Part shown: positions 24,658 through 28,980 of the stretch, one piece after another
How positions within the stretch are numbered: the first letter of the stretch is position 1
How the letters are laid out: each line of letters starts with the position of its first letter
UHGV virus genome: UHGV-0148166
DNA from: a virus
DNA length: 39,519 nt
Direction: 5' to 3' (one strand)
The notes under the pieces: generated by a model
The model's database searches: none
What the model was told of the DNA's origin: nothing
Seen by the model: the letters and a program-made list of their open reading frames with translations, nothing else
Program-made: the position numbers and the translations under genes

Positions 24658-25131
24658 ATGTTATTGACTGGCAAATTATATAAAGAAGAAAAACAGAAAT
24701 TTTATGATGCACAAAACGGTAAATGCTTAATTTGCCAACGAGAACTAAATCCTGATGTTCAAGCTAATCATCTTGATCATGACCATGAATTAAATGGACC
24801 GAAAGCTGGAAAGGTACGTGGATTGCTTTGTAATCTTTGTAATGCAGCAGAAGGTCAAATGAAACATAAATTTAATCGTTCTGGCTTAAAGGGACAAGGC
24901 GTTGATTATCTTGAATGGCTAGAAAATTTACTTACTTATTTAAAATCCGATTACACCCAAAATAATATTCACCCTAACTTTGTTGGAGATAAATCAAAGG
25001 AATTTTCTCGTTTAGGAAAAGAGGAAATGATGGCCGAGATGCTTCAAAGTGGATTTGAATATAATGAATCTGACACCAAAACACAATTAATAGCTTCATT
25101 TAAGAAGCAGCTTAGAAAGAGTTTAAAATGA
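24658..25131 (+). CDS. 49: Endonuclease VII (Holliday-junction resolvase, gene 49)
   Basis: 157 aa; Zn-binding CLIC...C..C and HDHE motif; sequence as recalled for T4 gp49. Confidence 0.9.
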   Translation: MLLTGKLYKEEKQKFYDAQNGKCLICQRELNPDVQANHLDHDHELNGPKAGKVRGLLCNLCNAAEGQMKHKFNRSGLKGQGVDYLEWLENLLTYLKSDYTQNNIHPNFVGDKSKEFSRLGKEEMMAEMLQSGFEYNESDTKTQLIASFKKQLRKSLK

Positions 25132-25949
25132 ATGTAGTATATAAACTATCATTTATTAATAGAATTAATGCTAAAACCCCACCATATTATTACATTGGAA
25201 GTAAAACCAATTGCACTTTTGATGGAACGAATATTATTGATAAAAATGGTAAATTTTATTATTCGTCTTCGTCATCTTCTGAATTTCAAAAAGCCTTATT
25301 GAAAGAAACGCCGAAAGTTGAAATATTATATTTTCAATTAGTCGGAGATGAACAAATAACTAGCATTGAAGCTGAATTTCAAAAGAATATAGAAAAAGAT
25401 GTATGGAATAAAGAGTATTTTAATTTAGCATATGCTGATGGCAAATTTACGACATATGGTATTTCTCCTTCTAAAGAAACTAGAGAAAAGCAATCAATAA
25501 CCATGATTAAAAGAAATCGTAATAAAGGCAAAAATCATGGATTTTATGGAAAGCATCATACTAATTTAGCTAGAAAGAAAATATCAGAAGCTTCTAAAAA
25601 ATACTGGAAAGAAAATCCACATCGTGGATTTTCGCATACAAAGGAAGCTAAAATTAAAATTGGAATTTCATCTTCTATCAGGCATAAAGGAAGTGGAAAT
25701 CCGATGTATGGTGTAAAACCTTGGAAAACTCCGAGCGCAATTAAATCTGGTACTTGTATATTATGGTTAAAATACGCAGAAATTTTATATGATTATTTAA
25801 GTCCAGATTTTAAAAGTAAATCATCTATTTTTGCGGATTTAAACTTACCGAAATTTAGAATTGATAATTTCATCAAAAGGTTTAAAATGGGTTGGAACCC
25901 ATATTTAGACGAAGAATTTCAAAAGGATAAATTAGAATTATGTCTTTAG
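25128..25949 (+). CDS. GIY-YIG homing endonuclease (Seg-like, 273 aa)
   Basis: VVYKLSF...YYIGSK motif, NUMOD-like repeats, AT-rich; N-terminus paralogous to terminal ORF 39243. Confidence 0.75.
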   Translation: MNVVYKLSFINRINAKTPPYYYIGSKTNCTFDGTNIIDKNGKFYYSSSSSSEFQKALLKETPKVEILYFQLVGDEQITSIEAEFQKNIEKDVWNKEYFNLAYADGKFTTYGISPSKETREKQSITMIKRNRNKGKNHGFYGKHHTNLARKKISEASKKYWKENPHRGFSHTKEAKIKIGISSSIRHKGSGNPMYGVKPWKTPSAIKSGTCILWLKYAEILYDYLSPDFKSKSSIFADLNLPKFRIDNFIKRFKMGWNPYLDEEFQKDKLELCL

Positions 25950-27757
25950 AAAAAGATGTTTTAAATTTTATTTCAAATAAAGATAAAGAATTAAATACAG
26001 AAAACGCCAACAAAGATTCTCGCGTCTTTCCAACAAAAAGAGATTTAATGGCCGGTATTGTTTCTAAACATATCGCTTGTCGTATTCTTCCAAGTCATAT
26101 TGTAAATGCCCATAATGTTGGATTAATTCATTTTCATGATTTAGATTACAGTATATCATTGCCTTTTACTAATTGCTGTTTAGTAGATTTAAAAGGAATG
26201 CTTGAGAACGGGTTTAAGCTCGGTAATGCACAGATTGAAACTCCTAAATCAATCGGTGTTGCTACTGCGATTATGGCACAAATTACTGCGCAAGTTGCTT
26301 CCCATCAATATGGCGGAACGACTTTTGCTAATGTAGATAAAGTACTTTCTCCTTATGTTAAACGCACCTATGCAAAACATATCGAAGACGCAGAAAAATG
26401 GCAAATCGCCGATGCGTTAAATTATGCTCAATCTAAAACAGAAAAAGACGTATACGATGCATTCCAAGCTTATGAATATGAAGTAAATACTCTCTTTAGT
26501 TCAAACGGACAGACTCCTTTTGTAACAATTACATTTGGTACAGGAACTGACTGGACTGAACGAATGATTCAGAAAGCAATTCTGAAAAATCGTATTAAAG
26601 GTCTTGGTCGTGATGGGATAACTCCTATTTTCCCTAAGCTTGTTATGTTTGTTGAAGAAGGTGTTAATCTTTATAAAGACGATCCGAACTATGATATTAA
26701 GCAGCTTGCTCTAGAGTGTGCAAGCAAAAGAATGTATCCTGATATTATTTCAGCTAAGAACAATAAAGCTATCACTGGTTCATCTGTTCCTGTTTCTCCA
26801 ATGGGTTGCCGTAGTTTCTTGAGCGTATGGAAAGATTCGACTGGTAATGAAATTCTTGATGGACGTAATAATCTTGGTGTTGTAACACTGAATCTTCCTC
26901 GCATCGCGTTAGATTCTTATATTGGAACACAGTTCAATGAACAGAAATTTGTTGAATTATTCAATGAACGAATGGATTTATGTTTTGAAGCTTTGATGTG
27001 TAGAATTAGTTCCTTAAAAGGAGTTAAAGCGACTGTTGCTCCTATTCTTTACCAAGAAGGTGCATTCGGGGTTCGTCTTAAACCTGATGACGATATAATT
27101 GAGTTATTTAAAAATGGTAGAAGTTCAGTGTCCCTAGGATACATTGGTATTCACGAATTGAATATTCTTGTCGGTCGTGATATTGGACGAGAAATTTTAA
27201 CTAAAATGAATGCTCATCTTAAACAGTGGACTGAAAGAACCGGATTTGCTTTTAGTTTATATTCTACTCCTGCTGAAAATCTTTGTTATCGCTTCTGTAA
27301 ACTCGATACAGAAAAATATGGAAGTGTAAAAGATGTTACCGATAAAGGTTGGTACACTAATAGTTTCCACGTTTCAGTAGAAGAAAATATTACTCCGTTT
27401 GAAAAGATTTCTCGTGAAGCGCCATATCATTTCATTGCGACAGGTGGTCACATTTCTTATGTTGAACTTCCTGATATGAAAAATAACCTAAAAGGTCTTG
27501 AGGCCGTATGGGATTATGCTGCACAACATTTAGATTATTTTGGTGTTAATATGCCAGTAGATAAATGTTTTACATGTGGAAGTACCCATGAAATGACTCC
27601 TACTGAAAACGGATTTGTTTGTTCTATTTGTGGAGAAACTGATCCTAAAAAGATGAATACCATAAGAAGAACATGCGGCTATCTTGGAACTCCTAGCGTT
27701 GTTCCATGGAATTTAGGTAAAATGAAAGAAATGGTAAAACGAGTAAAACATGCATAG
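25940..27757 (+). CDS. nrdD: Anaerobic ribonucleoside-triphosphate reductase NrdD (intron-less)
   Basis: 605 aa continuous ORF; C-terminal Zn ribbon CFTCGS...CSICG and glycyl-radical motif RRTCGYLG. Confidence 0.95.
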   Translation: MSLEKDVLNFISNKDKELNTENANKDSRVFPTKRDLMAGIVSKHIACRILPSHIVNAHNVGLIHFHDLDYSISLPFTNCCLVDLKGMLENGFKLGNAQIETPKSIGVATAIMAQITAQVASHQYGGTTFANVDKVLSPYVKRTYAKHIEDAEKWQIADALNYAQSKTEKDVYDAFQAYEYEVNTLFSSNGQTPFVTITFGTGTDWTERMIQKAILKNRIKGLGRDGITPIFPKLVMFVEEGVNLYKDDPNYDIKQLALECASKRMYPDIISAKNNKAITGSSVPVSPMGCRSFLSVWKDSTGNEILDGRNNLGVVTLNLPRIALDSYIGTQFNEQKFVELFNERMDLCFEALMCRISSLKGVKATVAPILYQEGAFGVRLKPDDDIIELFKNGRSSVSLGYIGIHELNILVGRDIGREILTKMNAHLKQWTERTGFAFSLYSTPAENLCYRFCKLDTEKYGSVKDVTDKGWYTNSFHVSVEENITPFEKISREAPYHFIATGGHISYVELPDMKNNLKGLEAVWDYAAQHLDYFGVNMPVDKCFTCGSTHEMTPTENGFVCSICGETDPKKMNTIRRTCGYLGTPSVVPWNLGKMKEMVKRVKHA

Positions 27758-27769
27758 GGTTAAACACCA

Positions 27770-28402
27770 ATGAATTATGACAGAATCTATTCAAATCTAG
27801 TTAATTCTGCTGAACACCCATCTAAGCCCCGTCAAACTAAAGCCGGGTATGAACTTCATCATATAATTCCAAGAAGCATGGGTGGTCCAGATGATTTAGA
27901 CAACTTAGTATTTTTAACTTATAAGGCCCACTATACTGCTCACCATTTATTGGCTAAAATATATGGTGGAAAGATGTATGATGCATATTGGATAATGAGT
28001 AATAGTAAGCATAGAAAAGTTACTTCTTCACAATACGCGTATGCAAAAGCTAAGAAATTTGAAAATCAGCGTGGCGCAAAAAGAAGCGATAAAACTAAGA
28101 AGCTAATGAGCATAGCTAGGTCTAAAGTAACTCTTCCTGATGATTTTGGAAAAAGGATATCTGATGGGCTAACAGGAAGAACTTTGTCTACTAGTCATAA
28201 AGAGCATATCAAAAATAGTTCTAGAAATCGCTTTAACACCAAAACGGTTATTGGCTATTCACCAGACGGAAATACAATAGAACTAACTGGAGCAACTGAA
28301 ATAAGAAATGCAGGATTTTTTCATTCTGCTGTTTATAAATGTTGCAAAGGAATTCAATCTATTCATAAGGGATATACTTGGAAATATAAAGATGAATTAT
28401 GA
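27770..28402 (+). CDS. HNH homing endonuclease (Mob-like, 210 aa)
   Basis: HNH motif ELHHIIPRSMGG...DNLVFLT..AHYTAHH; NUMOD-like repeats; first 7 codons MNYDRIY duplicate the nrdG start. Confidence 0.75.
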   Translation: MNYDRIYSNLVNSAEHPSKPRQTKAGYELHHIIPRSMGGPDDLDNLVFLTYKAHYTAHHLLAKIYGGKMYDAYWIMSNSKHRKVTSSQYAYAKAKKFENQRGAKRSDKTKKLMSIARSKVTLPDDFGKRISDGLTGRTLSTSHKEHIKNSSRNRFNTKTVIGYSPDGNTIELTGATEIRNAGFFHSAVYKCCKGIQSIHKGYTWKYKDEL

Positions 28403-28862
28403 TAGAATATACCCGTGCTGCTTTGTTAATGGTCCTGGATGCAGGGTCGTTCTCTTCGTCACTGGATGTTTGCATAAATGCGAAGGTTGTTATAATCGTA
28501 GTACTTGGAATGCTCGTAACGGACAGTTATTCACTATGAATACCGTTAAAGAACTTGCGTCCCATTTAAGCAAATCGTATATCCAAGGCCTTACCTTAAC
28601 CGGTGGTGACCCACTTTATCCACAGAACCGAGAAGAGATTTCAAATTTAGTTTCTTGGGTTAAAGCAAGATTTCCGGAGAAAGATATCTGGTTGTGGACA
28701 GGATATAAGTTTGAAGATATTAAACAACTAGAAATGCTTAAATATGTTGATGTTATTATTGATGGGAAGTATGAGAAAAATCTTCCGACTAAAAAGCTGT
28801 GGCGAGGATCAGATAATCAGCGGCTTTGGTCAAATACCGATGGGGTGTGGAAACATGATTAA
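28392..28862 (+). CDS. nrdG: Anaerobic RNR activating enzyme NrdG (radical SAM)
   Basis: 156 aa from ATG 28392; Cys cluster CLHKCEGC; the track's longer ORF is an upstream extension. Confidence 0.9.
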   Translation: MNYDRIYPCCFVNGPGCRVVLFVTGCLHKCEGCYNRSTWNARNGQLFTMNTVKELASHLSKSYIQGLTLTGGDPLYPQNREEISNLVSWVKARFPEKDIWLWTGYKFEDIKQLEMLKYVDVIIDGKYEKNLPTKKLWRGSDNQRLWSNTDGVWKHD

Positions 28863-28980
28863 ATTGAATTATATTATGGATACTATAAATGATATGATTT
28901 TTCATTTTGGTCCAGAATTTTATTCCCAATATAGTTTAGTGCTTATCAACGCTTGGTTAATCAATTAAAGGTAAATGTAA

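Follow-up and report, generated by a model that had tools for sequence, protein, structure and literature searches.

A free-standing homing-endonuclease gene of the HNH family, the homolog of mobC of phage T4, separates nrdD and nrdG (anaerobic ribonucleotide reductase large subunit and its radical-SAM activase) in UHGV virus genome UHGV-0148166, a stretch of 39,519 nt which is referred to here, at its full length, as the window. Sequence comparisons show that mobC lies within the first codons of nrdG, a gene of an essential pathway. They indicate that its start and first seven codons were probably taken from nrdG, that the mobile cassette supplies a replacement 5' end for nrdG, and that the cassette probably spread by homologous repair and is of Jiaodavirus-like origin. 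The genome belongs to a T4-like phage of the genus Tequatrovirus; nucleotides 27400-28900, covering nrdD-mobC-nrdG, share 99.6% identity with phage BEU50 and 96.4% with T4. The coordinates of the features are collected in Table 1.

The mobC open reading frame (ORF) starts ATGAATTATGACAGAATCTAT (27770) and nrdG starts ATGAATTATGATAGAATATAC (28392). The two sequences match at 18 of 21 nt and both specify MNYDRIY, the three mismatches (nt 12, 18 and 21) all being synonymous. The match has sharp limits: the 15 nt ahead of the ATG show no similarity, nor does the sequence beyond codon 7. The stop codon of mobC, TGA at 28400-28402, occupies nt 9-11 of nrdG. An earlier note on this DNA had pointed to the shared MNYDRIY start, which is read directly from the sequence, and to an endonuclease ORF that ends 11 nt into nrdG; both observations hold.

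The HNH ORF and T4 mobC are identical except at 3 of 633 nt, and both encode 210 amino acids (aa). The Pfam HNH domain (PF01844) was matched by MobC residues 28-50 (E-value 5.7e-6; 26.8 bits, cutoff 21.4), the match to the PHROG 655 homing endonuclease had a value of 2e-42, and HHIIP...N...H is conserved in the alignment of the MobC family, the profile of which aligns with residues 1-208, that is over the full length and without a gap at the start. Of 838 matching records most lack the gene; those that have it are 29 of Tequatrovirus and 3 of Klebsiella phages, and its flanks are collinear. With an HNH motif, full-length homology and the presence/absence pattern of a free-standing gene, mobC is a Mob-type gene. 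The mobC-positive loci were taken from GenBank phage records; a search of IMG/VR for related loci with MobC returned no close mobC locus. A 2010 review gives no determined activity and no known target for MobC and describes mobC as a promoter-less cassette (PMC2988022). Scanning for promoter and terminator consensus sequences gave sites no more numerous than in shuffled sequence. The 3' end of mobC contains TATAAATG at 28334, ~58 nt upstream of nrdG, which agrees with the T4 late-promoter consensus at 7 of 8 positions, and this is preceded by a hairpin (28310-28329) matching the terminator pattern, both within the stretch 28310-28341.

The insertion was delimited by alignment with relatives lacking an endonuclease gene at this site (gene-less relatives). 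In RB51, ESh17, T2H and nine IMG/VR loci the ATG of nrdG stands directly behind ...ATGCATAGGGTTAA(A/G)CA(C/T)CA. In RB51, ESh17, T2H and the Tequatrovirus-type IMG/VR loci nrdG starts where mobC starts in T4, behind ...GGGTTAAACACCA, and in gene-less relatives the nrdD stop overlaps the nrdG ATG (...ATGCATAGGGTTAAACACCA/ATGAATTAYGATAGATTTTAT/CC...). In T4 the same upstream sequence leads into the ATG of mobC, and nrdG follows 622 nt further on. An insert of 622 nt is obtained both for T4 against RB51/ESh17 and for the Jiaodavirus pair Shark_ER15 (with mobC) and KP185 (without). It consists of 601 nt of endonuclease-specific DNA and a second 21-mer, the gene-less relatives having a single one. 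Since 622 equals 3n+1, mobC enters the second 21-mer in a different frame from nrdG (GAT GAA TTA TGA) and meets its stop codon there. As judged from these alignments, the spacer GGTTAAACACCA is the old initiation context of nrdG, which now stands ahead of mobC. The endonuclease gene thus depends on nrdG sequence for both its start region and its stop, and nrdG is complete: it is one ORF of 156 aa, aligning over 471 nt without gaps to the gene-less relatives, and is not split in two. The earlier note had proposed that a homing-endonuclease gene entered the 5' end of nrdG and left nrdG intact, and had named a junction alignment with gene-less relatives as the check. In that alignment the relatives possess a single 21-mer behind the same upstream sequence and the 156-aa NrdG is equal in length to that of the relatives, in support of both points; the insert measures 622 nt and mobC starts at the position of the nrdG ATG. 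A product of precise excision, with T4-type nrdG joined directly to nrdD, was sought among the full-length matches and none was found, 29 of 29 retaining mobC.

That the start of mobC is derived from nrdG is best seen at related loci. In the Klebsiella phages Shark and Wolf (Jiaodavirus) mobC starts ATGAATTTCGACAGAATCTAT, specifying MNFDRIY, and agrees at 20 of 21 nt with the resident nrdG (ATGAATTTCGACAGAATCTAC). The left copy thus follows the resident allele in both Jiaodavirus mobC loci (2/2), and its Phe3 compares with Tyr3 in all 135 motif-bearing sequences of the HNH family among the matches listed. Of 31 gene-less T4-like loci, 28 have an NrdG with Asp4-Arg5, and Asp4 is near-absent from the HNH family. 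In MobC, the family motif xxLI follows without a gap as SNLV at residues 8-11, which argues that the seven codons of nrdG replaced the endonuclease's own seven in register. Such an in-register swap would be expected from recombination within similar 5' ends, and not from random insertion followed by duplication.

The same site is occupied in other phages by a different HNH gene, here called PST-type. Records containing it number 22 for Tequatrovirus and 10 for Klebsiella phages, and that of Yersinia phage PST labels it 'mobC'. Its product has 279 aa, is ~32% identical to MobC in the HNH region and has a homologous C-terminus (GY.WKY..EL followed by the stop), and the gene overlaps nrdG by the same 11 nt. 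It opens with 13 nrdG codons (MNYDRFYPCDFVN or MNFDRIYPSDFVN; PSDFVN/PCDFVN), a stretch reaching beyond the family motif, and in six of six loci representing three backgrounds its first 40 nt follow the resident nrdG allele: the left copy of EcMI02 equals RB51 and that of Ozark equals ESh17 (each 40/40), PST and BF15 score 39/40, and Roth04 and SmallBear equal KP185 (40/40). The downstream nrdG copy in these six loci is always the diverged PCCF allele MNYDRIYPCCFVN, which fits a replacement nrdG 5' end borne by the cassette. The family profile aligns with the PST-type protein only from residue ~29, the native N-terminal motif lying at ~24-33 behind an extension of 23 residues, and on this ground the gene is regarded as resident nrdG codons fused in frame to the body of an endonuclease gene. 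The PST-type copy of BF15 (L059) carries a frameshift in an A-run, indicating a decaying endonuclease gene. Taken together, the alignments present capture of the nrdG start as a real and recurrent feature of the nrdD-nrdG site.

In the window itself the history appears to be less direct. Codons 4-7 of the left copy, GACAGAATCTAT (GAC AGA ATC TAT), are constant in all T4-type mobC copies of both genera. Compared with nrdG alleles they agree at 11 of 12 nt in Jiaodavirus, at 12 of 12 in loci L032-L037 of another T4-like lineage, and at 9 of 12 with the resident Tequatrovirus codons GATAGATTTTAT (GAT AGA TTT TAT). Because these codons are constant in the cassette and differ from the resident ones, the left copy is cassette-carried, the capture presumably having taken place in another lineage and been imported afterwards. 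The earlier note had the endonuclease gene capturing and duplicating the start of the nrdG beside it. The capture survives as a property of endonuclease genes at this site, on the evidence of the MNFDRIY mobC and the 13 codons of the PST-type gene; the derivation of the upstream copy from this genome's nrdG does not. Nor does a duplication at the moment of insertion, the right copy being a diverged allele linked to the cassette.

The flanks of mobC are mosaic. Over nt ~106-296 nrdG of the window and of T4 differs by about 50% from RB51, ESh17 and T6 and is 92-97% identical to Jiaodavirus nrdG; calculated over nt ~91-300, identity is ~95% to KP185 and ~55% to RB51. From nt ~300 on T4 nrdG is identical to RB51 again, unlike KP185. 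A search with a 201-nt block of nrdG returned 189 records only, ~140 of them Klebsiella/Raoultella phages (92-97% identity) and ~33 phages of E. coli, Shigella or Salmonella, which match the mobC-positive set. Every one of the 29 Tequatrovirus records combining a T4-type nrdD end with the Jiaodavirus-type nrdG block possesses mobC, so that within this genus the block is confined to mobC-positive records, and the mobC genes of T4 and Shark differ at 6 of 633 nt. The simplest reading would be a recent transfer of mobC together with ~300 nt of nrdG from a Jiaodavirus-like donor to Tequatrovirus. The nrdG gene of reference phage T4 thus appears to be an inter-genus chimera, part of which came from a Klebsiella-phage lineage along with mobC. 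A mosaic of this kind is typical of homing co-conversion, and suggests a target in nrdG rather than in the intergenic junction; the earlier note had marked the nrdD-nrdG junction as the likely homing site.

On the other side of mobC, the last ~70 nt of nrdD in the window (~27690-27769) represent the variant linked to segH in phage T6, which is 16 nt longer and gives the C-terminus ...VKRVKHA. This end is identical to T6 up to ATGCATAGG, where it is joined to the RB51/T4-type GTTAAACACCA. In the window nrdD stops 12 nt before the mobC ATG, versus an ATGA overlap in T4. The arrangement suggests that the locus is a recombinant of segH flanks and mobC, in which one endonuclease gene replaced another. 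The nrdG of the window also specifies Cys10 (TGC, 28419-28421), a position at which Asp is found in 17 of 17 gene-less loci. Cys10 is carried in addition by T6 (segH), by the six PST-type loci (PST, EcMI02, Roth04, Ozark, BF15 and SmallBear) and by Shark. A role of this PCCF allele in protection against the endonucleases was considered, but Cys10 is not required for mobC, since the mobC-positive phages T4, HP3 and Wolf have Asp10; it could be endonuclease-linked, protective or a hitchhiker.

The shared start might also be a coincidence, MobC having kept a family-native MNYxKIY and the gene having inserted directly upstream of the nrdG ATG with no capture or duplication. As raw sequence 18/21 is exceptional, because 4753 pairs of first 21 nt (ATG-started ORFs of >=60 aa in this window) reach at most 16/21. 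Several observations nonetheless weigh against capture. Three of the six degenerate codons are identical between the copies, 3.46 being expected from the codon usage of the window, so that synonymous sites match at chance level and the agreement in nucleotides is no more than the shared peptide entails. The HNH family profile search gave 25,857 representatives at E <= 0.001, and N-termini were counted in 153 sequences (150 listed plus earlier matches); among the matches listed, 61 of the 153 start MNY..IY and 135 start M-x-Y-x-x-(I/H/V/Y/L)-Y. MobB of T4 begins MNYLNIY and MobE of T4 MNYQKIY, both at loci unrelated to nrdG, and the KP27-type relative, which does lie upstream of nrdG, has its own start MNYQKIY. 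Metagenomic HNH relatives beginning MNYKKIY, MNYSKIY and MNYTKIY are not beside nrdG, and one relative situated between baseplate genes is natively MNYDRIY. The identity of the two peptides would thus be largely predicted by the conserved N-terminus of the HNH family. In addition the left copy in Tequatrovirus is not the resident allele, so that capture is not visible in this genome itself, and an AlphaFold2 model of MobC built on a 7-sequence alignment (mean pLDDT 62, residues 1-24 below 50) was too poor to judge a role of the N-terminus. The identities cited in the earlier note are therefore insufficient as proof of capture, MNY..IY being family-native and the synonymous sites being at chance. 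Against coincidence stand the position of the T4 mobC ATG, which is the exact nucleotide of the nrdG ATG in gene-less relatives behind identical upstream sequence; the composition of the 135 motif-bearing sequences (among the matches listed), which have Tyr3 in 135, Arg5 in 20 and Asp4 in 1; the Phe3 of the Klebsiella-phage mobC, which agrees with its resident nrdG despite an invariant family Tyr3; and the 13 nrdG codons that follow the resident allele in all six PST-type loci. On balance coincidence is unlikely. Where other Mob-type genes were compared with the gene downstream (MobE/nrdB, MobB/a-gt and three metagenomic cases), the N-terminus was not common to the two.

A transposon-style target-site duplication, in which a staggered cut in codons 1-7 of nrdG is filled in and doubles 21 nt, would account for a direct repeat flanking the insert and a single copy in gene-less relatives. 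The repeats are non-identical, however (18/21 here, and ~8 of 40 positions differing in PST-type loci), and are not identical copies of the recipient's target: at PST-type loci the left one is the resident and the right one the cassette allele. The right copy is an allele shared across genera, and codons 4-7 of the T4-type left copy are likewise cassette-constant. Homing endonucleases spread by homologous repair and not by transposition (PMC2988022), and the co-converted nrdG tract of ~300 nt indicates homologous repair, all of which makes such a duplication highly improbable. We consider equally improbable the reverse direction of exchange, in which N-terminal codons of the endonuclease overwrote the start of nrdG and the MNYDRIY of NrdG is endonuclease-derived. 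In KP27 the first 15 nt of nrdG did come from the cassette (MNYIR for MNYDR/MNFDR), and the working nrdG 5' end is cassette-borne in mobC-positive and PST-type loci. The motif x-x-Y/F-D-R-I/F-Y is nevertheless present in NrdG at 28 of 31 gene-less loci from several T4-like lineages, and because it is so widespread there it is native to NrdG and older than the insertion. The NrdG of E. coli begins MNYHQYY. The MobC-like gene of KP27 (L008 2423-3108; 44% identical) lies just upstream of nrdG; in comparison with KP15-like phages (L051 971-1515) its cassette also takes the place of an unrelated ORF of 175 aa, and KP27 NrdG starts MNYIR instead of MNYDR.

Under the preferred reading, capture of the nrdG start in another lineage, the fusion would have been made outside this genome, and the mobile unit would comprise the mobC body and the replacement nrdG 5' end. 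An in-register swap would have been possible, and harmless, because the native MNYxKIYxxLI of the HNH family happens to resemble the MNYDRIY of NrdG. Spread would proceed by MobC-dependent homologous repair of double-strand breaks, with the right crossover inside nrdG and the left one in nrdD or, where upstream homology is wanting, inside the nrdG-like first codons. The T4-type cassette would have come from a Jiaodavirus-like donor, bringing along ~300 nt of donor nrdG, with its left crossover at or just upstream of the first codons. Once in place, mobC would be translated from the former initiation site of nrdG downstream of nrdD, possibly in a coupled manner, the site in T4 presumably being coupled to nrdD by the ATGA overlap and that in the window lying 12 nt after the nrdD stop. 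On reaching the mobC stop, 11 nt past the nrdG ATG, ribosomes would then re-initiate on nrdG. The chance similarity of the family and NrdG N-termini may have seeded the association. We are evenly divided on a broader proposition, namely that certain Mob-type HNH genes form a lineage specialised for entry into the opening codons of nrdG without recourse to an intron or intein, with 'start-codon capture' of 7 or 13 codons at least twice (T4 and PST types), movement between genera and a chimeric T4 nrdG, about 200-300 nt of it from Klebsiella phages, as the outcome.

Table 1. Features of the nrdD-mobC-nrdG region; positions refer to the window, except for the PST-type gene, which is given by locus.
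Feature	Position	Strand	Remarks
gp49, endonuclease VII	24658-25131	+	
seg-like ORF, 273 aa, NUMOD3 motif	25128-25949	+	
nrdD, anaerobic ribonucleotide reductase large subunit, without intron	25940-27757	+	Pfam NRDD 5.8e-171
spacer GGTTAAACACCA, 12 nt	27758-27769	+	directly before nrdG ATG in endonuclease-less relatives
left 21-nt repeat: mobC start codon and codons 1-7 (MNYDRIY)	27770-27790	+	at nrdG-start position of gene-less relatives
mobC, free-standing HNH homing-endonuclease gene, 210 aa	27770-28402	+	T4 mobC match, Pfam, PHROG
endonuclease-specific DNA, 601 nt	27791-28391	+	missing from gene-less relatives
right 21-nt repeat: working nrdG start and codons 1-7	28392-28412	+	first 11 nt also encode the last residues of mobC and its TGA in another frame
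nrdG, radical-SAM activase, 156 aa	28392-28862	+	Pfam Fer4_12 2e-50; ungapped 471-nt alignments to all relatives
nrdG nt 13-54, allele common to segH and PST-type HNH phages, includes Cys10	28404-28445	+	
nrdG nt ~106-296, block of Klebsiella-phage (Jiaodavirus) type	28497-28687	+	
PST-type HNH gene	L054 1162-2001 (Yersinia phage PST)		also in L052, L055, L059, L060, L061

The nrdG product possesses a radical-SAM/4Fe-4S domain, Fer4_12 extending over residues 12-145 and Radical_SAM being matched at 1.1e-7. The repeat and the overlap evidently lead automatic annotation of this gene astray. An ATG at 28308, within mobC and in frame with nrdG, gives rise to a spurious 184-aa 'nrdG' ORF (28308-28862). 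The Wolf_ER13 record uses that upstream start, and nrdG is truncated in the RefSeq entry of Ozark; the positions concerned are L058 1894-2448 and L060 1469-1861. Upstream of nrdD, the seg-like homing-endonuclease ORF has a GIY-YIG-like N-terminus (VYKLSF...YYIGSK) and matches NUMOD3 as well as PHROG 7504/314. It is joined to the gp49 stop by an ATGA overlap, and its 3' end reaches 10 nt into nrdD. T4 has no gene between gp49 and nrdD but an nrdD intron with I-TevII, the window nrdD being intron-less.

The anatomy of the junction and the mosaic tract direct the search for the MobC target to the first few hundred nucleotides of nrdG, and natural substrates are at hand in the putatively sensitive RB51/T2-type alleles and the endonuclease-linked ones. 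The locus also illustrates a way into a coding sequence that does not split the gene: the endonuclease gene would take over the opening codons with their start signals and furnish a recoded substitute. It points to gene flow between phage genera, nrdG of reference T4 apparently being part Klebsiella-phage. The repeat and the in-frame upstream ATG, finally, explain the recurrent miscalling of the nrdG start and the label 'mobC' on a different endonuclease gene. The gene, the exchange of mobC and segH, and the invasion of coding sequences by Mob genes are already known; the architecture of the junction is modestly new, and such seamless entry into a gene seems not to have been described explicitly before. 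No description of the shared start was found in the searchable literature, and a full-text search for MNYDRIY was empty, although the main paper on this locus (Sandegren et al. 2005) lay outside that search, so that an earlier mention is possible.

The closest known system is mobC of T4 (gp55.10), between nrdD and nrdG, which is the same gene with the same 11-nt overlap and the same left 21-mer; the window differs in having the T6/segH-linked nrdD end and the Cys10 allele at nrdG nt 13-54. In some T-even phages segH is reported to replace mobC (Sandegren et al. 2005, as cited in PMC2988022 and in bioRxiv 10.1101/2022.08.31.505936). The segH gene of T6 (GIY-YIG) occupies the same junction, ends overlapping the nrdG ATG (ATGA) and is linked to the Cys10 5' allele of nrdG. 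Unlike mobC, it belongs to an unrelated nuclease family, has its own start in the 3' end of nrdD (ATGCATAGG...), includes no nrdG codons and creates no repeat. The PST-type gene resembles mobC in its site, the 11-nt overlap, the in-frame fusion to nrdG codons and the replacement nrdG start, but has captured 13 codons (40 nt) rather than 7, and its left copy tracks the resident allele (39-40/40).

Mob-type HNH genes have entered coding sequences elsewhere. The T4 mobA cassette is located in the topoisomerase gene (39/60) together with a 50-nt bypass element (bioRxiv 10.1101/2022.08.31.505936), and mobE of Aeh1 lies inside nrdA (PMC3045599). In both, as with mobC, extra sequence accompanies the insertion and keeps the function of the host gene; there the host gene is split into two polypeptides, whereas nrdG stays in one piece, because the insertion is confined to its first 7-13 codons and comes with a substitute 5' end. 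T4 mobE, between nrdA and nrdB, is again a promoter-less Mob HNH cassette, the start of which overlaps the stop of the upstream ribonucleotide reductase gene (UAAUGA), and for which coupling has been proposed (PMC2988022); nicking and homing by MobE have been demonstrated (PMC2790892). It is unlike mobC in having no codons in common with the gene downstream (nrdB, MSTVF), its MNYQKIY being family-native.

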